Assembly: GCA_963777505.1 (NCBI GenBank)
Contig: CAVZQN010000004.1
Coordinates: 576,001-640,000 of the forward strand
Direction of reading: 5' to 3'
Origin: an uncultured bacterium
Lineage (GTDB): Bacteria; Acidobacteriota; HRBIN11; JAKEFK01
DNA: 64,000 nucleotides
Each line of letters opens with the position of its first letter. The first letter of the stretch is position 1. The notes under the pieces are model-generated. The model did not search any database. It was not told the DNA's origin and worked only from the letters and a program-made list of their open reading frames with translations. A program made the translations under genes and the position numbers. This document shows, one piece after another, positions 8,719 through 58,469 of the stretch.

Positions 8719-8853
8719 ATTCACCTCATTTAAGGCGCGCCTTTTGCGGTTCCTTGGTGCGAAAGCCGGGCCTTTGATTAGTTATTATCATTGCACAACT
8801 CATTGAAATTGAGTTATGCAGGCCCATAATCAATGCGGTGGATGCGAGGGCAT

Positions 8854-10035: not shown

Positions 10036-10089
10036 CTTGCTTCGTGGTAAAACATTTTCAGGAGCCGGCGAGTCGCCCGCATTAGACTA

Positions 10090-11453: not shown

Positions 11454-11455
11454 TC

Positions 11456-13237
11456 ATGAATATCCTTGGAATTTCTTGCTACTTCCATGATGCTGCTGCC
11501 GCGTTAATTCAAGACGGTCATGTGATTGCCGCAGCAGAAGAGGAACGGTTTACCCGAAAAAAACATGATTATGAATTTCCCATTCAAGCCATCCGATTTT
11601 GTCTGAAAAATTCCGGAATCGAAGCAGACGATCTTGATTATGTCGCCTTCTTTGAAAAGCCTTTCGTAAAATTCGAACGTCTTTTGCTTACTTGTCTGCA
11701 GACATTTCCAAAATCATATGCAGTATTCCGCGAAGCCATGGTGACCTGGCTTGCTGACAAATTATGGGTCAAGCATTTAATTCAAAAAGAACTGGGTGTA
11801 CCTGAATCTAAAATCCTTTTTGGTGAGCATCATTTATCCCATGCAGCCAGCGCCTTCTATTGTTCACCCTATGATAAGGCGGCGATTCTGACTGTGGATG
11901 GTGTCGGTGAATGGACGACTGCCAGCATTGGCATTGGATCAGGAACAACGCTCCGGCTTCTCAAAGAAATCAGGTTCCCACATTCCCTTGGTTTGCTTTA
12001 CAGCGCGTTTACGGCTTTTCTTGGCTTTGAAGTGAATGAAGGCGAATACAAAGTTATGGGAATGGCGCCATTCGGTGTGCCGCGGTATGTGGATAAAGTT
12101 CATAAGTTGATTCACTTGAACAGTGATGGCAGTTTTGAACTGAATATGGAATATTTTTCATTCCACTATTCGCGAAAAGATACATTCAATAAAAAATTCG
12201 TTGATCTTTTCGGAAAACCGAGAGATCCCAAGAGTCATTTCTTCACAACATCAACAGGTTATCCATCATACTTTGGAGAAAAGCCACAGGATTTTGAAGC
12301 GCTTGGAAAAGAAAATCAACATTATGCAGATATTGCCGCAAGCATCCAGGCCGTAATTGAAGAAGCATTAATCAAATTAGCAAATGCAGCCTTTCAAGAA
12401 ACAGGTGAAACGAAACTGTGTATGGCAGGAGGAGTTGCATTAAACAGCGTTGCAAATGCAAAGATCCTGAAGGAAACGCCATTTGATGAAATATATATAC
12501 AGCCTGCAGCGGGTGATGGTGGTTGTGCAATCGGTGCGGCATTGTACGCGTACCATCACGTTCTGGGAAAGCCTCGCGGCTACATCATGGAACACGCTTA
12601 CTATGGTCAGGAATATGCAAATGGAGCCATTTCATCTTTCTTGAATGAAAATGGAATTCCAAACGAACGCTATGAAGATGAGGATAAATTAATTTCACGT
12701 GTCGTAGATGAAATTCAGAATGGAAAGGTAATTGGTTGGTTCCAGGGAAAATTTGAATGGGGTCCTAGAGCGCTTGGAAATCGAAGCATTCTTGCGGACC
12801 CGCGAAGGACCGATATGAAAGATCTTGTGAACGTAAAAATAAAATTTCGTGAGCCTTTCCGTCCGTTCGCACCATCAGTTCCTGCAGAAGATGCGTCTAA
12901 ATATTTCGACCTGCCGTCGGCTGAAACGCACTATCCAGCGAGATTCATGCTCTATGTCGTGGATGTCCTTCCAGAAAAACAATCAGTCCTGCCGGCGATT
13001 ACTCATGTAGATGGAACAGGCAGGCTGCAGACTGTGAGGAAGGAGTATAACCCCAAGTATCACAAGCTGATACAAACATTTGGGGAGGCAACTGGCGTTC
13101 CGGTAGTTCTAAATACCTCGTTTAATCTAAAAGGTGAGCCTATAGTAAATACACCGGCGGAAGCCTTCCAGACATTCAGCCGAAGTGGAATGGATTACTT
13201 AGTATTGGGTCAGTATATAATTAAGAAAATCGAATGA
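11456..13237 (+). CDS. NodU/CmcH-family O-carbamoyltransferase
   Basis: ILGISCYFHDAAAAL, EEERFTRKKH, HHLSHAASAF, DGVGE, GEYKVMGMA, GGVALN, EWGPRALGNRSILADP, NTSFN. The start is the ATG at 11456 (MNILG). Confidence 0.95.
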   Translation: MNILGISCYFHDAAAALIQDGHVIAAAEEERFTRKKHDYEFPIQAIRFCLKNSGIEADDLDYVAFFEKPFVKFERLLLTCLQTFPKSYAVFREAMVTWLADKLWVKHLIQKELGVPESKILFGEHHLSHAASAFYCSPYDKAAILTVDGVGEWTTASIGIGSGTTLRLLKEIRFPHSLGLLYSAFTAFLGFEVNEGEYKVMGMAPFGVPRYVDKVHKLIHLNSDGSFELNMEYFSFHYSRKDTFNKKFVDLFGKPRDPKSHFFTTSTGYPSYFGEKPQDFEALGKENQHYADIAASIQAVIEEALIKLANAAFQETGETKLCMAGGVALNSVANAKILKETPFDEIYIQPAAGDGGCAIGAALYAYHHVLGKPRGYIMEHAYYGQEYANGAISSFLNENGIPNERYEDEDKLISRVVDEIQNGKVIGWFQGKFEWGPRALGNRSILADPRRTDMKDLVNVKIKFREPFRPFAPSVPAEDASKYFDLPSAETHYPARFMLYVVDVLPEKQSVLPAITHVDGTGRLQTVRKEYNPKYHKLIQTFGEATGVPVVLNTSFNLKGEPIVNTPAEAFQTFSRSGMDYLVLGQYIIKKIE

Positions 13238-13238
13238 T

Positions 13239-13418
13239 ATGAAACTAAAACAAAGTCTTGCAGTGCGTTTTGGAATTCTTGGGGAACTTTTGTCATTCTT
13301 TTGGAATCACAAATGGTGGTGGCTTACCCCGATGATTCTTGTTCTTTTGGTGCTGGGCTTGTTTATGGTTTTTGCTTCAAGTTCTCCGATTGCACCATTT
13401 ATTTATACGCTATTCTGA
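13239..13418 (+). CDS. SxtK/DUF5989-like small membrane protein (59 aa, absent from the ORF track)
   Basis: Translated by hand: MKLKQSLAVRFGILGELLSFFWNHKWWWLTPMILVLLVLGLFMVFASSSPIAPFIYTLF; K-W-W-(W)-L-x-P and APFIYTLF signature. Confidence 0.88.
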   Translation: MKLKQSLAVRFGILGELLSFFWNHKWWWLTPMILVLLVLGLFMVFASSSPIAPFIYTLF

Positions 13419-13494
13419 TAAATTAGTGCGCGAGCTAAGCGTCAGACAAGTCTTCGCATGATGCCGTATAAGGCGGCATGCGAATGGACGGTGC

Positions 13495-15633
13495 ATGGCG
13501 CGTTTAAAAATAGGGGTAGTTGCAGCAATCGCAATCGGTGTAGTCGTTGCGCCACTATTCCTTTCAGCCTTCATTCTAAGAAAAACTGCCGATCTTCATG
13601 GCGTTACTGTCACATCCGGACAGAGCAGCTGGAAATTTGAAGATTTAAACTCCGCTCTGACTTTTGCGGCTTCGCACGATGTAATCACAAATGCACGCAT
13701 TGCTGCATACGTGATGCTATCTGAAAATCCAAAACGTTTGTTTGTGCTTCGAGGTGTTGGTAAGTGCAAGTTCTTCATCGATCGTCATATGGTGATGAAC
13801 AAAATCACCCTGACTAGAACGTCGCAGGTTGTTTCGATTTCTTCCGGTTTACACGAGCTCAGCTTTGCTTACAGAAGAAATGAAAAAAGTGGTCCATTGG
13901 AGTTGTTCGAAAGTACTAATTTCGTTACTGCACATGTCTTTGATCGCCACAAATGCTATTTGGATTCTGTTAATGAGCAAACGATACGCGGCGAAAAAAC
14001 TGGCATTTTGTTACGCCAGATCGGAAGATTCAATGCTTTGATCATTCCACTTTTATTGATCGCAATCTCGGCGCTTCCTCTTAATAAAATCAGGACGCAT
14101 TTGTCCGAACGAAGGAACATGGTCGTCTTGTTGATTCTTGTTTCGCTGGCAGCACTCCGTTTTTATGGATTTAGTTATCAAATGCCTGAAGGGGTACATC
14201 CGGATGAGCGGATGATTGAAGGAATGGTGCGTGATGTCCATACGTATGGATTAGATCCACAACAATTCTGGTATACAACCGGCTTTATCTACGTAACAGC
14301 GGCTCTGGGTGAGCTATTCAGGTGGGTTATGGGTTATGGCCCGATGGAACATTCCATGCAAAGGCTTGTCAGTTGTCTTGCGTCAGCTTTTTCTTGTTTG
14401 TTCGTTTATTTGATTGCACTTCGGTTTTTCAATCGCCAGATTGCAACGATTTCAATGGTTGTATTTGGAATGCTTTTCATGCCTGTTTATCTTGCACATT
14501 TTGGAATTATCGAACCCTTCATGGTGCTTCTTTTTCTTGCGGCGTTTTATACGACACTTCAAGTGCATGATTCTCCTTCGTTTCTTTCGTTCGCAAAAGC
14601 TGGATTGCTTGCAGGGCTGGCGGTAGCAACTAAGCAAACCGCAGCATTGATCGTCGTACCTTTTGTAATCGTTTGGATTCATCTGGCTGCCACAAAAAAA
14701 ATTCAGCAAAACGGAATCAAGCAATTGGCGGTTTATGGAGTCGCTTTTGCTGCAGGAATTTTTATTCTTGCTCCATACGCAATTTTAGATTTTTCTAGAT
14801 TCATGGAATTTCAGAGCCGGCAAATGGAAAATCTAAGCGGCCTTTCAAGAAAGCGATTGTACTTTGCTGGTAATGAATCTTTCGCAAGTTATGGAATATT
14901 GCTTGACAACGTACTTGATGGTGTAGGGTTCCCAATTTTGCTTGCGAGTATAGTGGGTTTGTTTCTGGCTTTTAAGAAAGCGAAGTTTGCTGGTGTGTTA
15001 ATCGGCAGCGTAGTCCTAGCCTATATCATCGTATCAGGAAGTATCGCAACGATGCCTTATCATTACGCTTTGCTGCTTTGTCCGTTCATAGCAATTCTTG
15101 CATCGTTTGCAATATCGTTCATGAGCCGATGGAAATTCTTTTCAGGTTGGCGTATCGTTTTGCCGATGTTTCTGCTCCTTGCCATTCCGGCGTATCACAT
15201 TTTTAGTTTAGAAAGAGCACTGAGCGGAATTGATACACGAAGACAGGCAGAAGATTGGTGCTATCAGAATTTACCTGGCAGTTCGAGAATCGATTTCGAA
15301 ACATTTGGACCACGATTTTTAATACCTAGCTTTGAATCACTTGCAGTTCCGATGTTTACAAGACAAAGATGGCAGAGACATATTCACTTTCGAAACCCGC
15401 AATACTACATCGAAGATTCAATTACTTCTGAAACCTTCTTAAATGGAGGTCCGGAAAAATTCCCACGTCAAAATGAATGGCTCAAATGGATTCATCAAAA
15501 TGGTGTGAAGGTGGCACAATTTAATTCAATCTCGCTCGGAATTCTAAATCCAACGATCACCGTTTACCGCATTCCCCTGGAAAAATCCTCCCAGGTCGAA
15601 GAAAAGAATAAGAACCTCGTCTCAATACCTTAG
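13495..15633 (+). CDS. GT-C fold (ArnT/PMT-like, family 39/83) membrane glycosyltransferase with N-terminal soluble domain
   Basis: HPDE motif after TM1, GLAVATKQTA, many TM helices, DTRRQAEDW C-terminal domain; beta-rich N-terminal region (possibly PA14-like). Confidence 0.8.
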   Translation: MARLKIGVVAAIAIGVVVAPLFLSAFILRKTADLHGVTVTSGQSSWKFEDLNSALTFAASHDVITNARIAAYVMLSENPKRLFVLRGVGKCKFFIDRHMVMNKITLTRTSQVVSISSGLHELSFAYRRNEKSGPLELFESTNFVTAHVFDRHKCYLDSVNEQTIRGEKTGILLRQIGRFNALIIPLLLIAISALPLNKIRTHLSERRNMVVLLILVSLAALRFYGFSYQMPEGVHPDERMIEGMVRDVHTYGLDPQQFWYTTGFIYVTAALGELFRWVMGYGPMEHSMQRLVSCLASAFSCLFVYLIALRFFNRQIATISMVVFGMLFMPVYLAHFGIIEPFMVLLFLAAFYTTLQVHDSPSFLSFAKAGLLAGLAVATKQTAALIVVPFVIVWIHLAATKKIQQNGIKQLAVYGVAFAAGIFILAPYAILDFSRFMEFQSRQMENLSGLSRKRLYFAGNESFASYGILLDNVLDGVGFPILLASIVGLFLAFKKAKFAGVLIGSVVLAYIIVSGSIATMPYHYALLLCPFIAILASFAISFMSRWKFFSGWRIVLPMFLLLAIPAYHIFSLERALSGIDTRRQAEDWCYQNLPGSSRIDFETFGPRFLIPSFESLAVPMFTRQRWQRHIHFRNPQYYIEDSITSETFLNGGPEKFPRQNEWLKWIHQNGVKVAQFNSISLGILNPTITVYRIPLEKSSQVEEKNKNLVSIP

Positions 15634-22624: not shown

Positions 22625-25600
22625 CTATTCGGCTTTTAATGCTGGAAGCAATGGCACTCGCAGGATCGCTGAAACTGCTGCGATGCTGGAAATCATTCCA
22701 ACAAAAAACACCAGAAGAAGGGTAAAACTCAAAGAAAGCCAGGGAATAGCTGAAAAATCTTGCAGTAAATAAGGTGTTGCAGTGATTGCTGCAGCGATCG
22801 CTCCGGTGAGAATTCCAATGCAGAGTAAGAACGCATTCTCAGCTACAACCATTGTTGCTAGAAATTTTCGTTGAAACCCAAACGCGCGCATTGCAGCCAA
22901 TTCGCCGCGACGTTCAATGACATTTCGAAGAAGAATAATTCCCAATCCTGTTGTTCCAAGCAAAAGACCAAGCCCGCCTAAAGTTTGAAACGTTGAAAGA
23001 TAAGTGTTCTCAACCGAATGGTAGTTTTCAATCGTTTCTACGGTCGACTTTGTATCCGCACCATAATCCGCAAGTTGTTCTTCAAATTTTTGCGAAAGAT
23101 CCGGAGCCTGATGTTGTTTGGAGTCAATCAAGAAATAGGAATAGCCGCTTTCTTTTGGAAAATGCTTGATAAATTGCTTTTCTGATATCAGGATCTCGCT
23201 TTGAAAGATACTGCTCTTCAAAAGAGCGACAAAACGCAAGGTCAATGGTTTCCCCGATGAATCAACCACGCTAAAGTCTTTTCCCAGGCCTGAATGCAGG
23301 ATCCATAGAACTGAGTTGTAATCACCGATTGCCGGAATAATGTTTTCTCCAAAATCGTGATCTAACAATCGCCATGGATTCTTTTGGATATCGGATTCTT
23401 TCGCCAGGCTTCCTTGAAACGAAAAGCCGCCTCGATCGATTTGCTTTTGGGGAACACCCAGGATGCGTGGTTTCCCCGGCCGGTACAAATTCAGACAGCT
23501 TGCATCTTCACCCGGAAGAAGGCGGAACGATGTAATGTCAGTCTGTTGAAATAAGCGTGCAGTGGCTTCAGGCAAATCCAGATCGTTTCGGTCTTTTGCG
23601 CTGGATGGATCGTAAAGTAAAGGAATACTCGATTGTGCAACCAAAGAATAACCACCGGTACCCGAATTCAAATCATCGGGATTCAGTTTCAGCTCACGGC
23701 GATTGATTCCTACAGCAACAATTACAAAACAAGCGCAAGATACAAGTGCTGCGCTTAGTAAACTTCGTCCCGGATTGCGCGAAGTATTTCGCGCAGCCAT
23801 CGCTGCGGCTGCAGCTCCTCCTGAAGCTCGCAATTTGTGGTGCTGCGTTTTGCGGAGCCAGACCATCAAAAGCGCCAACGCTGAGATTAACAAACAAGCA
23901 CCGGCTGCAAAAAACAAGGCGGATGCTAACGAAGCTGATGATTGTGATGCAATGATAACCAGGATCAACCCAAGTGGAAGGAATATCAGGCCGATGATGC
24001 GGCTCCACTTTGATGGACGAAATTCTTCAAACGATGTTGTGGATCCTGCAAGCAAGGAAGGTACAGGTAATTTCGATAAACGGCGAGTTGACCACCAGAG
24101 CGAAAACATCATAACGAAAAGCGAAATGATTGCGCCAAGCAGCAATGTTTGAAAATTTGTATGAAGTTGTAGATCTGATGAACCTACCGCTGACTGCCAC
24201 CAGGTGCGAAGCCCTGAAAGCATCAGCCAGGCATATGCAGATGCTGCAAGAGTGCCTAACAAAATTCCCGCTAACGCGAGAACGAACCCTTCCGATAGCA
24301 ACTGTCGCAGAATACTTTGAGGTGAATATCCCATCGCCAGTAAGGATCCTAATTCCTGGGATCGTTGTTCTGCTCCTAATCTGAACAAAAGCCCGGCGAG
24401 CATTGCAGACGAAAAGATCAAAAAGAAACTGAAGCCGGTAAAGAGTGCGCCAAAGTCACTTGAACCGTTTGCAGCATCCAAACCTTGTTGTCTTACGGGT
24501 TGAAAGATCATTCCAACATCGGCTGGCGTAATATTTTTTTGCAAAATACTTTTAAGCTGTCCTGAATCCTCCGATGTTTGTGTTATCCGGATAGAAGAAA
24601 GATTTCCAAAACGGCTGGACCAGAGTTGATGTGCTTTTTTTAGTGAAATGAAAGCTTTTGGGGCAGCACGATGTAAATCCCAATATTCTTCATCGATTGG
24701 ACGGATCAAATTTAAATCAACAGGAAACGGCGGAGACCATTCTGAAATATTTTCCGTATTTTGTATTCCTGGATATTCCGGAGCAAGGGAGCTGTCGATT
24801 GCAAATCCTTTCATCGAAATGATTCCGGCTAATCGGAATTCGTTTGATTTTGTAATGAGTTGATTGCCCGGGGCAACAACAAAGTATTCAACGCGAATTG
24901 GATCTCCGATCTGCGCTTTTAGATTGTTTGCACTCCATTCGGTCAGAAGGATTTCATCATCGTTTAGCGTTCGTACCGGGTTTCCATTTTGAAGCGTCAT
25001 GTCCGTTGATTCGAGATTTGATACCGCAGTGATCGTTGAATACGGGACCATGAGTTCGCTGGTCTGAATTTTGTTGGCAAGATATGTAAAGACCTGCTGA
25101 TCTTTTGCTCCTAAAGATTTCGCGGCTTGTGTCACTTTATTGGCAATTGTGGAATTCAAAATGATTTCAGAAGTTTCAATAACCACTTCGTTTTCGATTT
25201 GGCGGAGTTTGATTCCAGCATCTTCAAGTGTAAACACTTCCTTGAACGCACGATTGAGGGTTTCGATAGATTCCGAATTTTTTGATTTCACGTAGAGCGT
25301 GTTAACTTTTTGACTTAACTCTAGAGACCTTTGAATCACTTTCAAATCTACAAATGCATTTTGTGGAGAACTTTGATGCGGATGAAGAGTCAAACCACCC
25401 GGCCCTTTCTCAGATACGATTCCCGTCACTGTTAAGCGTAATTTCCGTACAACGTTTTCAACATTACGTTCTCCAAGGACTGTTTCTGGGTGAATATCTC
25501 CAGGCCGCTGAAAAGACAGCAGAATCGCATCTCCCGGTTTGACATTGAGTTCCCGTTGCAACGACTCAGTCACAACAACCGATGGAAAGATCTGTCCATC

Positions 25601-38445: not shown

Positions 38446-39536
38446 GATTTCGATTTTTCTCCAAAACAATATACGAGTCCGTCTTTGGATCCGATCACGA
38501 CTTTTCTCTCAGCGACAGCTGGAGAACCCAAAACTGCCGAACCCATATCGAATTTCCAGACTTCTTTTCCGGCGCTTGTCTCAAGAGCAAATAATTCGCC
38601 CGCTAAGTTCGCAAATAGAAGGCTTTGACCTGCAATCACAGGTGATGCATCGATTCTCGCTTTTGTGGGAAACTCCCAGAAAATTTTGCCAGACTGAGGA
38701 TCTAAGGCGCGCATGACTTTATCGCGTCCACCAACAGCAACAATTTTGTTTGTAACGGCAGCAGAAGAGTAATACGGAAACTTTTTTGAAGGATCTTCAA
38801 ACTGCCATGCAATTTTTTTCGCTGCCAGATCAATGGCCAAAATCTGATTCCCAAAAGTTCCTACGTATACTCGCCCATTTGCCAATGCAGGACTCGCAGC
38901 AACATAGGCACCCAGATCTACAAATCCAACTTCCTTGCCATCACTGATGCGGATCACACGTAATTTTCCATCGCAGCCAGCAACGATAACGTTTTCTCCT
39001 TGAATTGCAGGTGTTGCATGCACATACCCTGCGGTCTCAAGTTTCCAGAGCACAGTACCATCCTTCAATGACAAACAGTACAAATGATTGTCATACGACC
39101 CAAATAATACGCGATCACCGGCAAAGTTTGCCGAGGAAATAATTCCGGCATCAGCACGAAAATCCCATTTCTTTTTTCCCGAAGATGCTTCAACCGCGTG
39201 AAACACACCAAGCTCATCACCAAAGTAAACCGTGTCTTGATACACCGAGGGTGAGGATTTGATTTCATCACTTGCTTCGTATTTCCACTTTAACTTTCCG
39301 GATTTCAGATCGATTGCGTACAAAAACTTATCGAGCGAAGCAACATACACTATGCCCCCTGCGATTGCAGCGGTTGACTCAATTCCGCCTGTTTCGAGGG
39401 TCCAAAGTGGTTCCATTTGTTTCGGTAATTCTGTTGTTGCCACGCCTGTTAATTGTGGATTGCCTCGAAATAAAGTCCAATCAGCATGGGCTGAACGGGC
39501 CGTCAGCAATATCAAGAGGCTAATAAGAAGCTTCAT
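38442..39536 (-). CDS. Exported PQQ/BamB-like beta-propeller protein (one of five)
   Basis: Signal peptide, DWTLFRGNPQLTG, eight regular SSP..G.V..GS.D..L.A.D..SG...W repeats. Confidence 0.9.
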   Translation of the reverse strand: MKLLISLLILLTARSAHADWTLFRGNPQLTGVATTELPKQMEPLWTLETGGIESTAAIAGGIVYVASLDKFLYAIDLKSGKLKWKYEASDEIKSSPSVYQDTVYFGDELGVFHAVEASSGKKKWDFRADAGIISSANFAGDRVLFGSYDNHLYCLSLKDGTVLWKLETAGYVHATPAIQGENVIVAGCDGKLRVIRISDGKEVGFVDLGAYVAASPALANGRVYVGTFGNQILAIDLAAKKIAWQFEDPSKKFPYYSSAAVTNKIVAVGGRDKVMRALDPQSGKIFWEFPTKARIDASPVIAGQSLLFANLAGELFALETSAGKEVWKFDMGSAVLGSPAVAERKVVIGSKDGLVYCFGEKSKS

Positions 39537-40683
39537 ATAATTTCAAGAAATCAGATTCAGTTAAAGGTCTTGGGTTATATTTACCGGTCCATTGGTCCGC
39601 CGCATCGCGTGCCAGTTCCGGAAAATCCTGAGTATTGATTCCACACTGACGAAGATTTTGAGGCAACGTACCGGCTGTGCGAAGTTCTGAAATTCTTTCG
39701 CTTAAACGGACGCCTGGGGTGGTAGTGGAATTCTTAATACATGCAATTGTCAGAAGCTCTGCATAGGAAGTTTCCATAGTTTCTGCGTTAAACCGAACGA
39801 CCGCAGGGAGCATTAAACTGACGGCGATTCCGTGTTCAATTCCGAAATGTGATGTCAGCGGATTTGCACATGCATGTGCGGCGCCAAGCATAGAATGTTC
39901 AATTGCGATTCCTGCAAAATGGGAGCCGAGCAACATTTCTGCGCGTACTTCTATGTTTTGAGGTTCTTGGAGCACGCGTTCGTAATTCGATTCTAGAAGT
40001 TTCCATGCTTCCAGAGAAAACATTTTGGAAATAGGATTGCGCTTTGTAGTTACGAACGTTTCCACCGCGTGCGATATCGCATCAATTCCCGAGGTAGCAG
40101 TTACTTTTAGTGGAGCGCTTAGGGTCAATGAAGGATCAAGGATGATTGCGCGAAATCTTGCTTTTACATCCCCACAAGCCATCTTGCGGTTTGTTTTGTC
40201 TTGCGAAATTAAAGCATACGATTGTGCTTCACTTCCTGTGCCGGCGGTTGTTGGAATTCCGATTGAAGGTAACATTGGCTTTGTGGCGCGATTAAATCCC
40301 CAATAGTCTTCGATCGTGCCTCCGTTTGTCAGCAGAAAATTAATTCCTTTCGCTGTATCCATCGAACTCCCACCGCCTAAACCGATGATCAAATCAATTC
40401 CGCCTTTTTCGCGCGCGAAATGCGCACACCTTTCAACACTAGCAGCCGAAGGATTCTCTTCGACGCCATCAAACAGCACAAATTCAATGTTGTGTTCTTT
40501 CAAAGATTGAATGGCTAATTCAGCGATCCCAGCGGCACATATACCGGAATCAGTCACGATGAGAACTTTTGTCCCATCGAGTTCACGGATAAGTGTTCCG
40601 AGCTGCATGATCGCATTTGGACCAAAAATCACGCGCGAAGGAAATCCAAATTCAAACGTCCCATTGATCAGGCTTTGAAGCAT
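39520..40683 (-). CDS. Iron-containing alcohol dehydrogenase
   Basis: GGGSSMDTAK, PTTAGTGSE, DAISHAVE, HACAN...HG metal ligands. Confidence 0.93.
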   Translation of the reverse strand: MLQSLINGTFEFGFPSRVIFGPNAIMQLGTLIRELDGTKVLIVTDSGICAAGIAELAIQSLKEHNIEFVLFDGVEENPSAASVERCAHFAREKGGIDLIIGLGGGSSMDTAKGINFLLTNGGTIEDYWGFNRATKPMLPSIGIPTTAGTGSEAQSYALISQDKTNRKMACGDVKARFRAIILDPSLTLSAPLKVTATSGIDAISHAVETFVTTKRNPISKMFSLEAWKLLESNYERVLQEPQNIEVRAEMLLGSHFAGIAIEHSMLGAAHACANPLTSHFGIEHGIAVSLMLPAVVRFNAETMETSYAELLTIACIKNSTTTPGVRLSERISELRTAGTLPQNLRQCGINTQDFPELARDAADQWTGKYNPRPLTESDFLKLYEASY

Positions 40684-40688
40684 TCTTT

Positions 40689-42149
40689 TTAAACGTTCCG
40701 ACTTGCGCTTTCCGGTGAAAAAAGTGGTGCCAACTGTGATTGAAAAGCTCTTTGTTTATATAAATGTTCAAACAAATTGCCTTCATGTGGTTGGTTCCAC
40801 GAGATCCGGCTCGTCGGAATCACCCCTAAATTTAGGCGATCTATCTGTCGTGAAGCAAGTAAATTCCTTGTAAATTCAGGATCTTCAGTGATTGCAGTAG
40901 CGACAAGTGTTGGGCCTATGTGACTTAGGAGCTCATTTTGGGGTACTTCGACGACGGCAGCAAACGGAAACAAGAATTCGGACTTTGCGAGCGGATGTTC
41001 AGGATTGGTGCAAAAAATAGCAGTTGGAAGAAGATATGCGGCCCTTCCCAATTTCACAAGACGGCTTTGATTCCGGAATCGCATCGTTACATCTTCTGCC
41101 CCTTCGATTTCGAGCTGTTTATCGATCATTGCGGAGATTCGTTCGGCAATTTGAGGATTGCTAAAAGCAGCGATTGAAGCTTCGGGATCATTGGCAGCTC
41201 GGGCTTCAATTTTGGCAAACTTTTTCGCAAGGGCTTCTGCAATTTCGCGTCCATGCGATGGAACCCACACTGAAGATGCATTTAAACAGGATCTGCCTCC
41301 ATTTTCTGCAATAGAGGTTGCAATCACATCGATATATTTTTCCCAGTTTGAAGCAGCATCTTCGCCCAGGATTACTTTGCTCCAGCCGGGCCCATGAATC
41401 TGAACTTTCGGATCGTTCTGCCAGGCGCGAATCGATGAAGCATCACCAAAAAAGACGGAACGTCCGGTCCGCATCAGGATTTCGGAAGCGCCTGCATAGC
41501 TGGATGGATAAAATGAAAATGCTTGTGGAGGAATTCCGGCGGCGAAAAAAGCTTGAGCAATTCGGAAAGGAGTCCAGGGTTCTTGTCCGCCAGGTCGCAA
41601 CGCAAGCGGAACTTTAAATGGAATTGCAGGAATCCAGAGTGAATGAACTCCGGGAGAATTGTTGGGCAATATTGCGCCCATTATGTTTGTCTGACAAAAA
41701 AAACTAATCGCTCTCTGTTGCTGAGTACCGAAACCATGATCAAGAATGCTTAAATCCAGTCCGCGAGTTAATCCGCTGATTACTTCTTCCATGTTTTGAA
41801 GAACGAACTGGATCTTTTCTACATTGCGCCTACAAAGGATCTGCGGCATTCCTGTTGTTGATGAAATTTGCTGAATATACTCTTCAGGAGTTTGAGATCC
41901 TTCACCAAGAGGTAAAGTGCTCTCACCAAAATGAAGCGCTGCTTTTTTGCAAAGATCTAACAGATCACGAACTTTTAACTGTTCTAAGGCTCGTTTATAT
42001 TCCTCGGCACGATTTAAATCATGAGCGATCAACCCCGGATTTGCTTGACTGATGATTGCTACATTTTCGCCTGTTTCAAAATTTGTGAGAGTCGCTGTTT
42101 CAAGACTGTAATAAGGGTTGCCGGCTCGAAGGATTGGAATGTGAATCAT
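40689..42149 (-). CDS. Aldehyde-dehydrogenase-fold acyl reductase (GriD/EhpG/LuxC-like)
   Basis: LPNNSPGVH, catalytic Cys in NGGRSCLNAS, HGPGWSK in place of ELGGK, EFLFPF; starts at a TGATG overlap with the upstream gene. Confidence 0.8.
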   Translation of the reverse strand: MIHIPILRAGNPYYSLETATLTNFETGENVAIISQANPGLIAHDLNRAEEYKRALEQLKVRDLLDLCKKAALHFGESTLPLGEGSQTPEEYIQQISSTTGMPQILCRRNVEKIQFVLQNMEEVISGLTRGLDLSILDHGFGTQQQRAISFFCQTNIMGAILPNNSPGVHSLWIPAIPFKVPLALRPGGQEPWTPFRIAQAFFAAGIPPQAFSFYPSSYAGASEILMRTGRSVFFGDASSIRAWQNDPKVQIHGPGWSKVILGEDAASNWEKYIDVIATSIAENGGRSCLNASSVWVPSHGREIAEALAKKFAKIEARAANDPEASIAAFSNPQIAERISAMIDKQLEIEGAEDVTMRFRNQSRLVKLGRAAYLLPTAIFCTNPEHPLAKSEFLFPFAAVVEVPQNELLSHIGPTLVATAITEDPEFTRNLLASRQIDRLNLGVIPTSRISWNQPHEGNLFEHLYKQRAFQSQLAPLFSPESASRNV

Positions 42150-43210
42150 CAATACACTCCAACAACAACGGAATCTTGAAGCTTTGAGAAAAGGCGTAAA
42201 TTCCGAACGCCATCCCATGGATATAAGGGTGTAGGTTCTGCGCGTTCTCCTTCGTCACGTTCTGCAAAACGAGGCATGAAGAACTCGCGTGTCAACGTTG
42301 TTAATAAAACGCGTCCCGTTTGATTGTATTCAACAAGTGAATCCAGGTTGTCTGGATCTACGATTTCAAATACTGCTCTGGGGTTAGGCGGATAGTAGGT
42401 GATTGCATAATTATCTGCAGGATCAAATGGCTTATAACAAGCAAGCCCCATCAAAGTATTTCCGTACGTTGGGACGAAATCGATTCCGGGAACCAATTCC
42501 TCACGTGCAAATCTGTGGAATTGCTGATTCATTTCAGTTCCACCGCAAAAAATTCCCGTAATTCCATATTTAGGCAGTGAAACTTTTTCGCATAACGCTT
42601 CCAAAAGTTTCGGAGTTGTAAAAATGCAGCGGATATTTTCGTGAGCTTTCAGAATAATCAAGCCTTGTTCAATGACATGATTTTTATATTCCTGAAGTTC
42701 TTGATGCTTACCAGCCTTGATCAGCTTATTGACCCAGCGCGGATCAAGATCAACCATAAAAGCGATACCGCCGCGATGTTGCGCAAGATGTTCAATCGAT
42801 AATCGCAAACGTCTGGGTCCGGAAGGTCCGAGCATCAACCAATCGCTGCCAAATGGAAACGATTTATGAGAAAGTGTGTCGCTGAACATTTCATAATCGA
42901 TCTGGTAGTCGCGAATGTTAATCCTGCTTTTTGGAACACCGGTCGATCCGCCGGTTTCGAAAATCGAAACAGGTTCGTTTGAATAGGCTCGTGGAACCCA
43001 TCTTCGAACAGGTCCACCGCGAAGCCATTCATCTTCGAAATGTCCAAGTTTTTTGAGATCCTCATAATTATGGATCTCTTTACGCGGATCAAACTTCAGC
43101 TTCTTTGCGTATTCAATCCAAAAAGGTGTGCCAGTTTCCGGATCGAAATGCCATTGCACGATTTCACGGACATGCGAATCTAGTTTTTCTCGCGCTTCCT
43201 TGATCTTCAT
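42149..43210 (-). CDS. Short ANL-superfamily adenylating enzyme (GriC/EhpF-like)
   Basis: WHF.PETGTPFW N-terminus, P-loop ETGGSTGVPK, VDLDPRWV, GGT, YGNT, ERD; 353 aa without the usual C-terminal subdomain. Confidence 0.78.
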   Translation of the reverse strand: MKIKEAREKLDSHVREIVQWHFDPETGTPFWIEYAKKLKFDPRKEIHNYEDLKKLGHFEDEWLRGGPVRRWVPRAYSNEPVSIFETGGSTGVPKSRINIRDYQIDYEMFSDTLSHKSFPFGSDWLMLGPSGPRRLRLSIEHLAQHRGGIAFMVDLDPRWVNKLIKAGKHQELQEYKNHVIEQGLIILKAHENIRCIFTTPKLLEALCEKVSLPKYGITGIFCGGTEMNQQFHRFAREELVPGIDFVPTYGNTLMGLACYKPFDPADNYAITYYPPNPRAVFEIVDPDNLDSLVEYNQTGRVLLTTLTREFFMPRFAERDEGERAEPTPLYPWDGVRNLRLFSKLQDSVVVGVY

Positions 43211-43242
43211 CTTTGTGTCTTTGCGGTTGTGTTTTTTATCCC

Positions 43243-44679
43243 TTATTTCTTTCCAATTGCGTACAGGATTTCACGCGTAGCCACATACAACGTCCCATTA
43301 TGCGGGTGCGGTGTGGTGTAGACTGCGCCGCCCATATTAATTTCCGCAATGACTTCAAGTTTTTTGCCTGTTTTCAAAATTGCGACATCTCCATCTTCAT
43401 CACCGATATATATTTTTCCATCAGCGACCATTGGAGACGACCAGATTGCTGCAAATGCTTCGTATTTCCAGTATTCCTGGCCTGTTTTCAAATCAAGGCA
43501 ATAGACATTTCCGCTGAGATCAGCGGCGTATACGAGACCATCTTTAATTGCGACAGTTGAAAGGGTGCGATTAAAATTCTTGTCACCAAAATGCCAAACC
43601 TTTCCGGTCTCAGTAATGTCACCCTGCTTTGTTGCATCAATTGCATAAAGATGGCCTACACCTTCACCATGTTCAGGATCCTGACCAACGCCAATCAGTA
43701 CCTTGTTTTCAAATGCGACCGGTGCAGCAATGATGTAATTCCGAGTGCCGCTTCCACCTAGTTCCCACACTGCGTCTTTGGGATTTGCATCGAACTTCCA
43801 AATCGGCTTTCCTGTCGTAGGTTCAAATGCATAAACCCAGCCGTTTCCTCCGGCAAAGTAAACCTGTGGCTTACCATTTACAGTTCCATACGATGGAGTC
43901 GACCACTGTCCATGTAAAACATTTTCGCCAGGGGAAGCATCTTCCCAAACTAATTTGCCTGTTTTTTTATTGACTGCGATGAAGCTTGGAGCAACCGGTG
44001 ATGGAATATTAATGTGACCTTCATCTACTCCGTTTCCTGTAAGTGTGAAGACAAGGTCACCTGCGACAAGCGGAGAACTGGCTGCAAGATTATGTGGAAA
44101 CACATCCAATTCGTCGATCGTGTCATAGATCCAAACGATATCTGCATCAATTTCCGATTTGTCCGTTTCGCCTGTGAATGGACCGTCATTTTCGCCATCG
44201 CGAAATCCCTCGGTATCTACAGCCACAATCTCGGCGCGATTTGAAATGTAATAAAGCCGGTCTCCTTCAATCGCAGGAGTTGAACAAACTCCTTGCAATG
44301 GCCAATCGTTTACACGCCCTGCTGAAAGTTTTGGATGCGCACTTTGCCATAGAAATTTTCCATCGGCTGCATTAAATGCCATTACATTGCCGCGATCTCC
44401 CGTCAGTTTGGGATTTTTTAGCGCTTCATTGTTGGTGCCAACATACACTTTATCTCCGGCCGCAACAGGACCGCCGTACGTTTGTGAGCCGATTTTTGCA
44501 CTCCACTTTACGTTCTCACCGCTTTTAATATCCCACTTCACAGGCAATGCGGTTTCTGTAGAAACCATATTGCGCGCATTTGTAAATCCAAATGTTGCAA
44601 AATCTTTCGGATTGCTTGCGGCGAATGTAATCGCAGCAGCAATTGGAATCATGAGTAGTAATAGAATTTTGTATTTCAT
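43243..44679 (-). CDS. Exported PQQ/BamB-like beta-propeller protein with acidic loop (one of five)
   Basis: Signal peptide, GSQTYGGP, GVCSTP, DTEGFRDGENDG loop, HGQWSTP, GQDPEHGEG. Confidence 0.88.
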   Translation of the reverse strand: MKYKILLLLMIPIAAAITFAASNPKDFATFGFTNARNMVSTETALPVKWDIKSGENVKWSAKIGSQTYGGPVAAGDKVYVGTNNEALKNPKLTGDRGNVMAFNAADGKFLWQSAHPKLSAGRVNDWPLQGVCSTPAIEGDRLYYISNRAEIVAVDTEGFRDGENDGPFTGETDKSEIDADIVWIYDTIDELDVFPHNLAASSPLVAGDLVFTLTGNGVDEGHINIPSPVAPSFIAVNKKTGKLVWEDASPGENVLHGQWSTPSYGTVNGKPQVYFAGGNGWVYAFEPTTGKPIWKFDANPKDAVWELGGSGTRNYIIAAPVAFENKVLIGVGQDPEHGEGVGHLYAIDATKQGDITETGKVWHFGDKNFNRTLSTVAIKDGLVYAADLSGNVYCLDLKTGQEYWKYEAFAAIWSSPMVADGKIYIGDEDGDVAILKTGKKLEVIAEINMGGAVYTTPHPHNGTLYVATREILYAIGKK

Positions 44680-44694
44680 ATGTTGCTTAAGCCC

Positions 44695-46923
44695 CTATTT
44701 TGTCGATTTGGGAGTGACTTGAACATTATCAAAGTAAAGAACTGTTGTTGAATTTCCGTAGAGCCCTGGACTACCTTTTGTAATCGGAATCGGATCTTCT
44801 ACGACAATGCTCCATTGCTCCGGTTCCGGATCGGCTTTTGGCCAAACCTTACCTTTGATTTCAGCCTTATTCCCTGAATAATCGATCTGCATTTTCATCG
44901 TATACCAGGTATCCGGTTGCCATGCGAATTCTGCACTCTTAACAATTCTGAGTTCGGAAGCCCATGACCGAATTTGCAAACGCTGATGGCTTCCCATTAA
45001 ATCGAGAGTATAACCACTGTTAATCAGACCGATATCAGGAACGCGTCTCTTGTCTTTGGTTCCCATCACATCGGCCGAAATTACATAGTCCTTCATTGTA
45101 GAAGGTCCCATGTAAATATCGCCGCCTTGAATGCCGACAGCTGCAGGTGGTTTGGCAAGAACTTTATTGCCGCTCAAATCTTTCACTAAGAATTTCTTGC
45201 CTCCGGCACCGATCCAATAACCGGGACTGGAATCCACAGCGAATGTTTCGAAATCTTGCTTCAGAGGAAGCGGTGCAATGATTCGAATTCTTGCTTTTGC
45301 TTCAAGTTGACCAACTTTAGCGCTAATTGTTCCTGCTTGATTTCCCGCTGAAGCATCAGGTGTCATCTTCCCATTGGGATCGATTTGAACTTTCAATGGA
45401 GCCGTAGTCCATGTTCCGTTTGCTTCTTTAAGGAAGGCGCCATTCGCGTCAAATGTTCGGATCTTAAATGGAACTGTATCTGTAGTAGAAATCAAAACTT
45501 CTCCAGGAACGATCTGAATTGCTGCTGGAGCGGCGTTCGGATCAACCGCAGGTTCTTCGAGTTTTACCGGTTGTGGCGGTGTCACTGTGATTTTTTTCGA
45601 TTTATCACCCAGGCAAAACACACCTTCTTCAGTAGCGAAGTAAATTCGCCCATATGCGATCGCAGGGGAGCCATAAATTTCTGCATGACGTTCACCGACT
45701 CTTACTTGATCGCTATCGAGTTCCTTCGGCGCAGTATCACCGAGTTGAATGATCTTGAAGTGACCATTTACTTCGGTTACGTAGATTTTGCCATCAGCTA
45801 TAACTGGAGAGCCTTTTCCCACAGTTCCGATATTGTGCTTCCAGAGAAGTTTTCCAGATGTTGCATCCATCGTATAGATGTTTGCCGAATTATCGATCAC
45901 GTAGAGTTTTCCATTATCAACGGCAGGAGATGTGTAACCCACTTCCAAACGATCGTATCTCCAAAGTTCGCCTGTCTTTGTTATGTCGCCTTTGCCTGTT
46001 CCATCGATTGCGACAACACGTCCCATTGTTGCTTCATCTAGATTTTCTTCGCTATGCGATGCATACACACGAGTTCCATCAACAACGACCGATGAATTAA
46101 TTCCACGCTTACTGAGCTGAAAGCCCCAAACCTTTTCACCGGTTCGGACTTTCATCGCGTAAATACCTCCGTCTGCATTGCCGCCAATCAAAAGGCGTTG
46201 CCCATTAATCACAGCGACAACAGGAGTTGAGTAGACGTTGAAATCGTAAACGGCTCCGCCTGGAGTTGAAACCCAAACGACTTTGCCATCATTTTTGTCG
46301 AATGCATAAAAGCGGTGACGTGGAGGAGCATAGTCTCCCCATTCAACACTAACAAAACCTTGAATAACTAAATCACCATCCACAACAGGTGTATCGGTTC
46401 TCCCGCCATATCCTGAAACATGACCAAAGTCTTCAGTCAACGGATAAGACCATAAAATTTTTCCATCTTTGTTGTATCCAATGAGCATTCCGCCGACACC
46501 ATGCGCGTAGATATTTCCTGTTTCAGGATCTCCAACAAGGCTGGCCCAACCTACACGGTTGTACGGGACAGTGCTATGGTAAACGTGGAATTTGTGTTCC
46601 CATACAAGTTTGCCTGTTTCTGCATCAAAGCAAGCAACATGTTCTTGCATCAGCGGGCCACCACCTTTTGCATCAACACCGGTTCGGCCGATTACATAGA
46701 CACGGCCATTCATAACAATCGGAGTCGAACGCCCAACGAAATTTGATTTCCAAATCAGGTTGTCTCCTTGAGTTGACCAACTTGAAATCAAGTTCTTCTC
46801 AGAAGATGTACCGGTTTGATTTGGCCCACGCCAACTTGGCCAATCGGCTGCAAGTGCGGGCAATGCTGCCAGGATGATCAATACAATAAAGAGACGAGTA
46901 CGACGCATTTCATGATGTGCCAT
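44695..46923 (-). CDS. Exported PQQ/BamB-like beta-propeller with C-terminal Ig-like and lectin/ConA-like domains (one of five)
   Basis: Signal peptide, DWPSWRGP, propeller repeats; C-terminal WYTMKM...KGKVWP..DPEPEQW...GSPGLYG...FDNVQV beta-sandwich pattern. Confidence 0.85.
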   Translation of the reverse strand: MAHHEMRRTRLFIVLIILAALPALAADWPSWRGPNQTGTSSEKNLISSWSTQGDNLIWKSNFVGRSTPIVMNGRVYVIGRTGVDAKGGGPLMQEHVACFDAETGKLVWEHKFHVYHSTVPYNRVGWASLVGDPETGNIYAHGVGGMLIGYNKDGKILWSYPLTEDFGHVSGYGGRTDTPVVDGDLVIQGFVSVEWGDYAPPRHRFYAFDKNDGKVVWVSTPGGAVYDFNVYSTPVVAVINGQRLLIGGNADGGIYAMKVRTGEKVWGFQLSKRGINSSVVVDGTRVYASHSEENLDEATMGRVVAIDGTGKGDITKTGELWRYDRLEVGYTSPAVDNGKLYVIDNSANIYTMDATSGKLLWKHNIGTVGKGSPVIADGKIYVTEVNGHFKIIQLGDTAPKELDSDQVRVGERHAEIYGSPAIAYGRIYFATEEGVFCLGDKSKKITVTPPQPVKLEEPAVDPNAAPAAIQIVPGEVLISTTDTVPFKIRTFDANGAFLKEANGTWTTAPLKVQIDPNGKMTPDASAGNQAGTISAKVGQLEAKARIRIIAPLPLKQDFETFAVDSSPGYWIGAGGKKFLVKDLSGNKVLAKPPAAVGIQGGDIYMGPSTMKDYVISADVMGTKDKRRVPDIGLINSGYTLDLMGSHQRLQIRSWASELRIVKSAEFAWQPDTWYTMKMQIDYSGNKAEIKGKVWPKADPEPEQWSIVVEDPIPITKGSPGLYGNSTTVLYFDNVQVTPKSTK

Positions 46924-56877: not shown

Positions 56878-58443
56878 ATGATCCTTGAGAGTCAGATTTC
56901 TGCGCAGAGTTCGGAATTTCAGAGAAACTATCAGCATCATTTGAAACTGGCTGAAGAACTGCAGTCGTTACTTGCCGAAATTCGGAAAGGTGGATCCGAG
57001 GAAGCACGTAAGAAACACGAAGAGCGTGGAAAGCTTTTCGTTCGTGATCGGATCCGATTGCTGCTCGATCCTGACAAGCCGTTTCTGGAATTATCTGCTC
57101 TTGCTGCTCATAAGGTTTACGAAGCTGAAGTTCCTGCCGCTGGTATTGTGACAGGAATTGGTTGGATACATGGTCAGCCTGTGATGGTGATTGCAAACGA
57201 TGCAACGGTTAAAGGCGGCACGTACTATCCATTGACCGTTAAAAAACACATTCGCGGTCAGGAAATTGCGCGGGAAAATCATCTTCCTTGTGTCTATCTT
57301 GTAGATTCCGGCGGCGCATTTCTTCCACTTCAAGCCGATGTGTTTCCCGATAAAGAGCATTTCGGACGCATCTTCTTTAACGAAGCGAATCTTTCAGCCG
57401 CAGGAATTCCGCAAATTGCAGTTGTGCTGGGAAGTTCTACTGCGGGCGGAGCCTATGTTCCGGCCATGTCTGAAGAAGCGATCATGGTTAGAAATCAAGC
57501 GACGATTTTTCTGGGTGGTCCTCCGCTTGTGAAGGCTGCAACGGGTGAGGATGTTACTGCAGAGGAATTGGGTGGCGCGGATTTGCACAGCAGAAAATCG
57601 GGTGTCTCGGATCATTATGCTGAAAATGATGCACATGCTCTGGAGATTGCACGAACTACTTTGCAATTCCATCGTCATCATTTGAGTGATCAGCGATGGA
57701 TGGTTCGAACGCGCAGTGAACCTCCAAAGTATCCAGCCGACGAAATTCTAGGCGTGATTCCCACGGATTTGCGTCAACCATTTGATATGCGTGAGTTGAT
57801 CGTTCGCATTATCGATGGCGGGGCGTTCCATGAATTTAAGAAATTATATGCAACAACTCTTGTTTGCGGGATGGCGCATATTGGGGGATTTCCTATCGGT
57901 ATTCTTGCGAACAACGGCGTGTTATTTAGCGATACTGCTTTGAAAGCGACACATTTTATTGAGCTTTGCGATCAGCGCAAAATTCCGCTCCTGTTTTTGC
58001 AAAACATAACTGGATTTATGGTTGGAAAAGATGCTGAAGCTGGTGGAATCGCAAAAGATGGCGCGAAACTTGTAACTGCTGTGGCCACATGCAGCGTTCC
58101 CAAAATCACAATTATTGTTGGAGGCTCCTTTGGCGCCGGTAATTATGGAATGTGCGGACGGGCCTATGAGCCGCGATTTTTATATATGTATCCAAATGCG
58201 CGGATTTCTGTGATGGGGGGAGATCAAGCCGCTCACGTTTTAGCGAGTGTTGGAAAAACAAATCCAGATGAGATTAAAGAAAAGTATGAAAAAGAAGGTC
58301 ATCCATATTATAGCTCCGCACGTTTATGGGATGATGGTGTCATCGATCCGCGAGATACACGATCGATTTTGATTCAGAACCTGGAAGTAATCTCACGAGG
58401 ACCTGAACCTAAAGAGACAAGATTCGGTTTATTCCGCATGTAG
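56878..58443 (+). CDS. liuB: 3-methylcrotonyl-CoA carboxylase beta subunit
   Basis: [63 protein letters not shown]. Confidence 0.95.
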
Positions 58444-58469
58444 GATTCTTTCACCGCAAAGACGCCAAG

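Follow-up and report, generated by a model that had tools for sequence, protein, structure and literature searches.

A multi-phylum operon tied to exported PQQ-type propellers, and its possible role in supplying them with a reduced, sugar-tagged aryl molecule

Introduction

What is made, and for which recipient, by an operon that combines tailoring enzymes, five exported propellers and both import and export systems? The question is raised by a run of genes in an uncultured member of the Acidobacteriota, lying within a 64,000-nucleotide stretch of DNA (the window). Carriers of the system also possess multiple exported "PQQ-like/BamB-like" propellers unexplained by annotation pipelines. They account for about 30% of the Acidobacteriota sampled, 68% of genomes in the Latescibacterota-containing phylum and 38% of those in KSB1. 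The near-perfect tie of these propellers to a GT4 glycosyltransferase and an ABC system narrows a vague annotation problem to one experimentally tractable question, whose answer could uncover new cofactor or envelope chemistry among the bacteria dominant in soils, sediments and sponges.

The gene system is real and multi-phylum. Judged from its gene content, its most likely task would be to convert a hydroxybenzoic acid into a reduced, sugar-tagged molecule for the exported propellers; we infer every reaction and substrate, the product and the product's role.

Architecture of the operon

All 18 co-oriented genes of the earlier note were recovered in place on the minus strand (22625..46923), and Pfam/NCBIfam matches back their labels: AMP-binding, Aldedh, Fe-ADH, Radical_SAM plus HemN_C, GT4 and 4HBT for the enzymes; TonB receptor, DUF3311, SSF, Na_H_Exchanger, ABC_tran and two FtsX plus MacB_PCD for the transport and envelope genes; and PQQ_2 for the five propellers. 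Six of 17 junctions overlap, five of them in the ATGA/TGATG form described earlier, and 4 more of the 17 are spaced by 5 nt or less. The reported lack of a recognisable scaffold synthase also holds, as NRPS, PKS and terpene families gave no match among the cluster ORFs and the other window ORFs scanned. A small protein that recurs with the system and has no family match (29841..30344), previously assigned five transmembrane segments, displays four strong segments and one weaker. Downstream of the 18 lies a 19th co-oriented gene, encoding a TPR protein (21689-22591), which stands beside no other operon copy among the loci examined.

Conservation across phyla

The same gene order is found in KSB1, Calditrichota and Latescibacterota as well as elsewhere in Acidobacteriota. 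Because it returns across phyla at 45-80% identity, the arrangement is not due to chance; adenylase identity across phyla is 68-90%. Two outcomes had been named that would undermine the cluster, namely homologues scattered in other genomes or a match to a characterised pathway. Instead, neighbourhoods are conserved across phyla and no characterised match was found, and the occurrence in Acidobacteriota suggested earlier is confirmed. For Planctomycetota there are only hints, in the form of one labelled adenylase homologue and atlas rows for a lyase-like protein.

What stays constant throughout is a prop3-GT4-ABC-FtsX core, to which the reductase does not belong. In minimal operons the exported ACSF4/BamB-like propeller prop3 (38442..39536; PF13570 at 219 bits, above cut-off) lies directly or nearly 5′ of the GT4 gene (30344..31651), the best marker of the system, which is followed by the genes for a LolD/MacB-type ABC ATPase (25990..26679) and a large duplicated FtsX/MacB-type permease (22625..25993). 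Minimal operons contain neither the TonB-dependent receptor, a probable salvage importer (33408..35513; TIGR01783 barely above cut-off; 36/80 loci), nor the PanF/PutP/MctP-like sodium:solute symporter (31654..33150; under every equivalog cut-off), whose partner is the small DUF3311 membrane protein (33147..33362). The CPA2 antiporter (26683..27996) and prop5, a WPxxRG propeller (28029..29318), are local additions: both are absent at this position from the five other operons examined that run through thioesterase, ABC and FtsX genes, and CPA2 turns up close to the system at just two further loci (L007, L127), where it lies on the opposite strand. GT4 occurs without neighbours of the system in loci L173-L176, and the adenylase-reductase pair stands alone in G015, G038, G084 and G181.

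Genome-wide co-occurrence

Among 201 Acidobacteriota genomes, which like the others profiled are phylogenetically related so that all these counts are to be read with that in mind, GT4 occurs in 59 and the dispersed multi-copy propeller family, queried with the exported WPxxRG propeller prop4 (35674..36906), in 60; they are found together in 59 of the 60 positives, and 141 genomes have neither. KSB1 (113 genomes) presents 43 with GT4 and 46 with propellers, together in 43/46; in family f30 (12 genomes) both are present in 3/4 positives, and in the Latescibacterota-containing phylum (125 genomes) the adenylase falls within the propeller set in 85/90. The propeller family is almost never found without GT4, and their co-occurrence persists where the genes are scattered along the chromosome.

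In Acidobacteriota the sets are strictly nested, from propellers (60) through GT4 (59), adenylase (56), radical SAM (48) and halogenase (46) to the chorismate-lyase-like gene (17). All 48 radical SAM genomes fall inside the adenylase set, and radical SAM is missing from 11/59 GT4 genomes. This nesting resembles stepwise loss with salvage. The profiles lend specific support to one predicted product proposed earlier, a cofactor or ligand for the propellers.

The adenylase-reductase pair and its replacement

The adenylase (42149..43210) matches EhpF (3L2K) at E 2e-42 over residues 11-333 and, with 353 aa against 366 aa, has the short length (about 350-370 aa) of the EhpF/GriC type. An ALDH-fold, GriD/EhpG-like acyl reductase (40689..42149) follows it in 74/80 loci. 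The ALDH catalytic Cys (Cys288) is kept in 74/74 reductases, and HGPGxSK replaces ELGGK in 74/74, with the general-base Glu replaced. Adenylation of an aryl acid and then its reduction by the partner is proposed from these features. Homologous short adenylases translationally coupled to an ALDH-fold partner with a catalytic Cys operate as EhpF/EhpG of Pantoea agglomerans, for D-alanylgriseoluteic acid, and as GriC/GriD of Streptomyces griseus, for grixazone, the latter described as reducing a hydroxybenzoate via acyl-AMP (PMC10179220). Unlike that group, to which identity is about 30-35%, the present pair is partnered by GT4, ABC and propellers and not by an antibiotic scaffold pathway. The phenazine-core family PF03284 gave no match in the source genome, but no control genome matched either.

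A NuoEF-Nfn-like Fe-S module stands in place of the missing pair at 13 loci and occurs at 0/103 adenylase loci. All 3 Acidobacteriota with GT4 but without an adenylase ortholog carry it, confirming the displacement prediction. Found in relatives only, the module has a NuoE/F fusion and a 2Fe-2S/GltD-like subunit in common with StnABC/NfnABC-type modules (8OH5, 9N5U), from which it differs in occupying the adenylase-reductase slot. Its 521-aa subunit holds no hydrogenase or molybdoenzyme domain, and the module has no obvious carboxylate-reducing subunit.

Probable scaffold source and tailoring

Since relatives encode within the operon an aryl-CoA ligase and a halogenase as well as a chorismate-lyase-like protein, the scaffold is probably a hydroxybenzoate; the absence of a scaffold gene is thus true of the source genome's operon but not of its relatives'. 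The source genome lacks lyase and CoA ligase, has importers, and keeps a halogenase about 555 kb from the cluster (C4:1178504-1179826). That halogenase, without a CoA-ligase ortholog, is not accounted for by the proposed scheme. The lyase-like protein is predicted to fold like DUF98/chorismate lyase (2NWI, E 1.6e-8; 1JD3, E 1e-4), a UbiC/DUF98 fold also found in UTRA sensor domains. Its gene lies within operons of radical SAM, lyase, halogenase, thioesterase and CoA ligase, and in a full KSB1 operon (L160). Hydroxybenzoate is extrapolated, because 39/56 adenylase genomes lack the putative lyase by single-query search.

The radical SAM enzyme (37096..38445; 48/201 genomes) carries CxxxCxxC and the HemN_C domain of class C HemN-like enzymes; the HemN, ChuW and HemW equivalogs were rejected (187 vs 325, 203 vs 400 and 163 vs 205 bits). 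The 4HBT-type thioesterase (29403..29837) elsewhere clusters with CoA ligase and halogenase. Because the radical SAM and halogenase genes cluster with CoA ligase and thioesterase, tailoring more likely precedes reduction, which amends the earlier order of reduction followed by radical SAM chemistry.

Glycosyltransferase and ABC system

In GT4, C15 and C18 of the N-terminal CxxC are invariant (139/139), as are R250 and E345 (139/139 each), and position 337 is E or D in 139/139; E/D337 and E345 make up the EX7E of GT4, and R250 is the phosphate-binding Arg. The LolD-like ATPase and the FtsX and MacB periplasmic domains place the ABC system, which has no MacA/TolC partner, in the LolCDE/MacB superfamily. 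It is not LolCDE itself, because it scores under the LolD, LolCE and ADOP cut-offs. Import, reduction, radical SAM chemistry, glycosylation and export, as first envisaged, all fit the gene families, but FtsX systems of this LolCDE/MacB type extract from the periplasmic side, and therefore efflux from the cell does not follow.

The propellers

The five propellers were described as exported, and all have hydrophobic N-termini and no lipobox (a call made by hydropathy, not SignalP), as do orthologs of prop1 (51/52) and prop3 (56/57). The 8-bladed PQQ-type prop1 (44695..46923; 5′ of the adenylase in 59/80 loci) ends in a conserved domain (mean identity 52%) that has no Pfam or PDB sequence match, and its designation as a lectin is not sustained. 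An AF2 model of prop2 (43243..44679; 60/80 loci; pLDDT 87) matches BamB/YxaL/TetH/PQQ-ADH and, for this propeller, has the 8-bladed fold of PQQ-dependent dehydrogenases. Invariant His/Asp/Glu map on the model to its inter-blade and B-C loops, which makes prop2 a candidate for a catalytic or metal-binding role. The 8-bladed fold of prop2 is also that of BamB, YxaL and tetrathionate hydrolase (Z 34-38), from which it differs in identity (18-24%), in lacking a lipobox and in its long conserved His/acidic loops.

Several identities were rejected. TIGR03075, for PQQ-dependent dehydrogenases, reached at best 94 bits against a cut-off of 480, and prop2 has a single invariant Cys instead of the vicinal Cys-Cys motif of these enzymes. 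The acido-empty-quinoprotein group A (TIGR04528) reached at best 77 bits where >650 is needed, with none above cut-off in the source genome, and BamB (TIGR03300) at best 162 against 285 bits, the lipobox being absent. A pqqC search of the source genome found nothing, but its control gave no match either. When 22 divergent paralogs are compared, no polar or aromatic residues reach >=75% conservation apart from two Arg, one Ser and two Tyr, whose role may be structural; as for the S/T-P motif, it is a general feature of the repeat type.

A proposed pathway and its rivals

The reading we prefer, held tentatively and at a little under even confidence, is that the operon makes or salvages an aryl acid, reduces and glycosylates it, and delivers it via the ABC system to the propellers as cofactor or ligand. 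A chorismate-lyase-like enzyme would form a hydroxybenzoate from chorismate in some relatives, while in the source genome the acid would enter through the TonB receptor and DUF3311-SSS. Tailoring, where it occurs, would take place on a thioester: the CoA ligase would be followed by the flavin halogenase and by C1 transfer from the class C radical SAM enzyme, with 4HBT release at the end. The EhpF/GriD-type pair and the iron-containing alcohol dehydrogenase (39520..40683; 64/80 loci) would use ATP and NAD(P)H to pass from acyl-adenylate through Cys-thioester to aldehyde and alcohol; in lineages without the pair, the NuoEF-Nfn-like Fe-S flavoprotein module takes up its position. The CxxC-bearing GT4 would then conjugate the product, and the ABC system would hand it into the periplasm, to prop3 and other propellers.

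What this scheme would share with the PQQ and mycofactocin systems is no more than a logic, in which a single pathway locus serves many paralogs that depend on it, salvage has its own importer (PqqU) and the cofactor is glycosylated, for which MftF is the precedent (PMC7491314); the propellers also share the PQQ-dehydrogenase fold. It differs in having no precursor peptide and no evident pqq or mft homologues, in its aryl-acid start and in ABC delivery to the periplasm. A bolder version, which we consider doubtful, posits that a glycosylated hydroxybenzyl compound, with halogenation and methylation as options, is a new organic cofactor or electron carrier, which cells would make, salvage and load onto a large PQQ-fold family in the periplasm, with reducing power from the ATP-driven carboxylate reductase or a bifurcating flavin Fe-S module. 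If true, it would span several abundant, mostly uncultured phyla. Neither the operon nor any fusion among the source genome's paralogs holds a cytochrome or other electron acceptor.

The product might instead belong to the envelope, as an aryl-glycoconjugate or a lipid-linked component that the LolCDE-like ABC extracts and onto which propellers dock as carriers and binding modules, much as SLH domains depend on CsaB. An envelope-anchoring glycoconjugate predicts the GT4-propeller co-occurrence equally well, and GT4 with a LolD-like ATPase and FtsX permease lacking MacA/TolC, the best propeller folds being the non-enzymatic BamB/YxaL, and the fusion of the source genome's paralogs to esterase, ankyrin and HEAT domains as cargo are all in its favour. 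Many paralogs, however, are propeller alone and carry no cargo, prop2 has many invariant His/Asp/Glu at loop positions, the operons examined hold no acyl- or prenyltransferase, and nothing in this account explains why an interchangeable NAD(P)H module should be required; we regard it as rather unlikely. Less probable again is a recycling redox shuttle, in which the aryl acid/aldehyde/alcohol would be reduced in the cytoplasm by low-potential chemistry, driven by ATP in aerobes and by bifurcation in anaerobes; propellers in the periplasm would oxidise it, and the symporter would bring it back. The interchangeable modules have nothing in common except that they use NAD(P)H to attain low potentials, one operon holds importer and exporter, the propeller fold is that of PQQ alcohol dehydrogenases and GT4 has its invariant CxxC, all as a shuttle would have it; yet minimal operons lack SSS/TonB importers, MacB/LolCDE-type ABCs are ill suited to high-flux cycling, and glycosylation would have to be undone in every cycle.

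An operon that combines importers, reduction, glycosylation and export could also serve to take up aromatic acids or antibiotics from the environment and to detoxify or catabolise them. This is the least credible reading, and the detoxified antibiotic suggested earlier is disfavoured: relatives' own operons appear to encode synthesis of a chorismate-derived acid, halogenation and radical C1 transfer are biosynthetic in character, and ring-cleavage genes are absent from the loci examined. A cluster for a secreted halogenated aromatic, of the Halo_AMP pseudoclass proposed for sponge symbionts, seems only marginally more plausible and is improbable. That pseudoclass, whose definition uses two tailoring genes and whose members are interpreted as natural-product clusters, is described by Loureiro et al. 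(bioRxiv 10.64898/2026.08.03.742642) from Acidobacteriota, Latescibacterota and Poribacteria, with halogenase and AMP-binding enzymes, rSAM, a TonB receptor and PQQ-like domains. Against secretion, the system is single copy with 60-80% identity across phyla, its tailoring genes are dispensable, as the radical SAM losses show, and its genes are retained together even when scattered, tied to a dispersed protein family.

The 2026 preprint's clusters probably touch the same system. The two agree in their taxa and in the domains listed (A domain, halogenase, rSAM, TE, GT, TonB, PQQ-like), whereas the reductase pair, ABC core and genome-wide propeller link are not mentioned in its cluster account (10.64898/2026.08.03.742642), and P450s, a feature of its CC A, were not noticed in a general inspection of the present loci. 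A Trp_halogenase near an AMP-binding gene, the Halo_AMP hallmark, is absent from the window but present in relatives. The tie between the propellers and the GT4-ABC core further suggests that some sponge Halo_AMP clusters mined for natural products may be fragments of a housekeeping-like system.

Operon architecture and component enzymes

All 18 minus-strand genes of the operon (22625-46923) were found as first described, in the order prop1, prop2, adenylase, reductase, Fe-ADH, prop3, radical SAM enzyme (rSAM), prop4, TonB receptor, DUF3311, SSS symporter, GT4 glycosyltransferase, 4-5 TM protein, 4HBT thioesterase (TE), prop5, CPA2 antiporter, ABC ATPase and FtsX permease. Family scans upheld the gene labels of the earlier note, and its five exported propellers (prop1-prop5) each have a hydrophobic N-terminus and no lipobox; the lectin it had named in prop1 was not confirmed, searches with the C-terminal tail of prop1 giving zero matches. 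Six of the 17 gene junctions overlap and another four lie at ≤5 nt, and the GC content is 0.446 versus ~0.44 for the contig. An Rfam search of the window gave no matches, and promoter and terminator signals across 20500-40000 did not rise above those of shuffled sequence.

The component enzymes belong to known families, and no characterized pathway of the same make-up occurs in the literature searched. In the PDB, the adenylase (42149-43210) matched EhpF alone, and because this is its only relative there, a LuxE/LuxC fatty-acid reductase reading was dropped. EhpF-O are described as acting on phenazine dicarboxylate (PMC3175449), and GriC/GriD as adenylating and then reducing 3-amino-4-hydroxybenzoate (PMC10179220). 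The reductase (40689-42149) keeps Cys288 and lacks the aldehyde dehydrogenase Glu in 74 of 74 sequences. HemN-like enzymes are reported to place C1 units onto sp2 carbons, as in aromatic ring methylation by MenK (PMC10114718); the operon rSAM (37096-38445) fell below every equivalog cut-off. Searches of the source genome for pqqC and for phzA/B gave no match and were likewise silent in control genomes. The GT4 (30344-31651) retains its donor-binding residues and carries an extra CxxC in 139/139 sequences, a motif also present in a divergent KSB1 group. Among labelled sequences, GT4 homologues come from Vicinamibacterales and Pyrinomonadaceae.

The prop2 model is an 8-bladed propeller. Its invariant residues (His, Asp, Glu, Trp) map to the B-C loops and to those between blades and, from general propeller geometry, presumably share one common face; the propeller family as a whole shows little polar conservation. 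In a comparison aimed at PQQ-dehydrogenase active sites, the alignments listed for prop2 paired it with designed repeat proteins. A complex prediction for the prop1 propeller domain with prop2 scored 0.05 and gave no usable model. The pore-associated propellers of Gemmata (10.1101/076430) probably constitute another family, to judge by annotation: their labelled member is annotated as Na-Ca exchanger/integrin-beta4.

Conservation and module exchange

Gene order was compared in the best 80 of 151 adenylase-relative loci, many of them from related Latescibacterota, with 10-kb flanks that often ended at a contig boundary. Within these limits, neighbors were present in the same order for the reductase in 74 loci, Fe-ADH in 64, prop2 in 60, prop1 in 59, prop3 in 58, rSAM in 55 and the TonB receptor in 36. 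Among 22 genome regions of ≤40 kb, five operons (G040, G005, G053, G077, G089) reach ABC-FtsX, and in all five TE adjoins ABC directly; prop5 and CPA2 are therefore local insertions in the source genome.

In the divergent KSB1 group, GT4 is present and the adenylase was found in 0/5 tested. Nine of 10 adenylase-less KSB1 loci, one of them ending at a contig boundary, carry a NuoE/F fusion, a 2Fe-2S/GltD-like gene or both immediately upstream of prop3-GT4-ABC(-FtsX); the exception, L169, has neither. The same NuoEF-Nfn module, set as a prediction for Acidobacteriota with GT4 and no adenylase ortholog, was present in 3/3 (G199, G188, G086), within or beside a prop3-ABC operon, and absent from G094. 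Of the 179 loci compared (4-21 kb each), 103 have an adenylase ortholog, and the module appears in none of these. This displacement pattern thus leaves an invariant core of prop3, GT4, ABC and FtsX, accompanied by either of two modules that consume NAD(P)H.

The closest labelled adenylase homologue is from Acidobacteriota (92%), and the source genome is assigned to this phylum on that basis. In a quick, unfinished tree, the window adenylase (42149-43210) groups with a Calditrichia sequence (SH-aLRT 98), and the pair falls in a weakly supported group that also holds KSB1-type sequences, not with other Acidobacteriota, a placement that hints at transfer between phyla. Two haloarchaeal plasmid records carry distant homologues (36%). 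An apparent adenylase-reductase fusion in G327, suggested by long open frames, was ruled out by a stop codon after the adenylase. In several genomes a TAXI-type TRAP transporter pair adjoins the system (L096:6449-9426; L057, L059, L066, L068), perhaps as another route of acid uptake.

Tailoring and putative scaffold genes of relatives

A flavin halogenase-like gene lies near the system in 17/80 loci, usually before DUF3311-SSS, and a PaaK-like CoA ligase in 16/80. The source genome has a halogenase ortholog standing alone ~555 kb off (L149:5505-6827 = C4:1178504-1179826), with its Lys and WxWxIP motifs kept; G040, of the same genus, likewise has its halogenase outside the operon. A search of the source genome for a CoA-ligase ortholog found none.

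Between the rSAM and halogenase genes of G043 is a 186-aa gene whose product matches the DUF98 protein 2NWI by profile (E 8e-5), and whose model (pLDDT 89) resembles 2NWI, chorismate lyase (1JD3/1G81) and also UTRA sensor domains. Operons of the form rSAM-lyase-halogenase-TE-ligase occur in G131, G070, G171, G048 and G043, and the lyase-like gene is also within a complete KSB1 operon (L160). Searches of the source genome with a single query, PF04345 (control positive) and a custom HMM that recovered a held-out control at E 4e-50 did not detect it. Given this fold and placement in relatives, and none found here, the scaffold is most probably a hydroxybenzoate derived from chorismate, which the source organism would import. 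A second, more distant rSAM paralog (38-41%) occurs in G053:C14, G136:C146, G194:C210 and G146:C271, followed in G136 by a second halogenase.

Genomic distribution

In one sample of 201 Acidobacteriota genomes, profiled at author-set thresholds, propellers of the dispersed prop4 family occur in 60 (E≤1e-25; 1 to at least 9 matches per genome), GT4 in 59, the adenylase in 58 (56 orthologs; distant in G188, 37%, and G025, 34%), rSAM in 48, the halogenase in 46 and the lyase in 17. These sets are nested in that order, distant G025 being the sole exception; GT4 and propellers are both absent from 141 genomes, and G094 has propellers without GT4. Nesting recurs in KSB1 (n=113; GT4 43, propellers 46) and in the phylum containing L021 and L080 (n=125; adenylase 85, propellers 90), and a mixed family (f30, n=12) has 3 genomes with GT4 and 4 with propellers, the additional genome being 85% complete; all such counts come from akin, hence not independent, genomes, with no unrelated gene as control and with propeller matches that are partly operon members. 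Co-occurrence persists where GT4 or the adenylase pair is away from any propeller.

Beyond the window, the source genome has about ten more members of the family, and in some of these the propeller is joined to an esterase, ankyrin or HEAT domain. Three (L140:4692-9616; C1:362251-364554) are propeller-esterase (PF00756) fusions, two of them in tandem, and similar tandem open frames of 800-850 aa occur in KSB1. A HEAT-prop2 paralog and another propeller each extend over two frames (L142:4699-7054; C8:470165-471458), perhaps through frameshift or sequencing error. In three families, an isolated GT4 is directly followed by a radical SAM gene (L174, L175, L176; G181, G131, G015), which we take to be MoaA-like.

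Proposed function and alternatives

The operon represents a real, uncharacterized and testable system. Its best-supported reading, held at somewhat below even confidence, is that an aryl acid would be made or salvaged, tailored, reduced, glycosylated and handed to the propellers in the periplasm to act as their cofactor or ligand. Counting against this cofactor or ligand are the lack of any electron acceptor seen, the lack of a catalytic signature common to the propellers, a source-genome halogenase left unexplained without its ligase, and a replacement NuoEF-Nfn module that has no obvious catalytic subunit.

The propellers might instead serve as binding modules for an envelope glycoconjugate, a doubtful reading. 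A redox shuttle that recycles is rather unlikely. A secreted halogenated metabolite appears improbable, and detoxification very improbable. QHNDH-like protein-cofactor maturation was discarded, since no precursor turned up and the system can do without both the rSAM and the flavoprotein; the halogenase matches QhpG/LodB only below cut-off.

In a literature search that left subscription journals mostly outside its coverage, the operon was undescribed beyond the Halo_AMP preprint (10.64898/2026.08.03.742642). That preprint reads sponge-symbiont clusters as natural-product clusters and links one cluster to no proven product; these clusters share the domain list of the operon, a likeness in domain content.

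Other loci in the window

The stretch 8833-15633 holds, all in the same orientation, two ORFs without annotation (377 and 381 aa), a carbamoyltransferase gene and one for a PMT_2 membrane glycosyltransferase; it may be an independent envelope-modification locus. The genes at 56878-62154 (carboxyltransferase, enoyl-CoA hydratase, biotin carboxylase, HMG-CoA lyase-like) form an ordinary catabolic cluster of the leucine/methylcrotonyl-CoA type.
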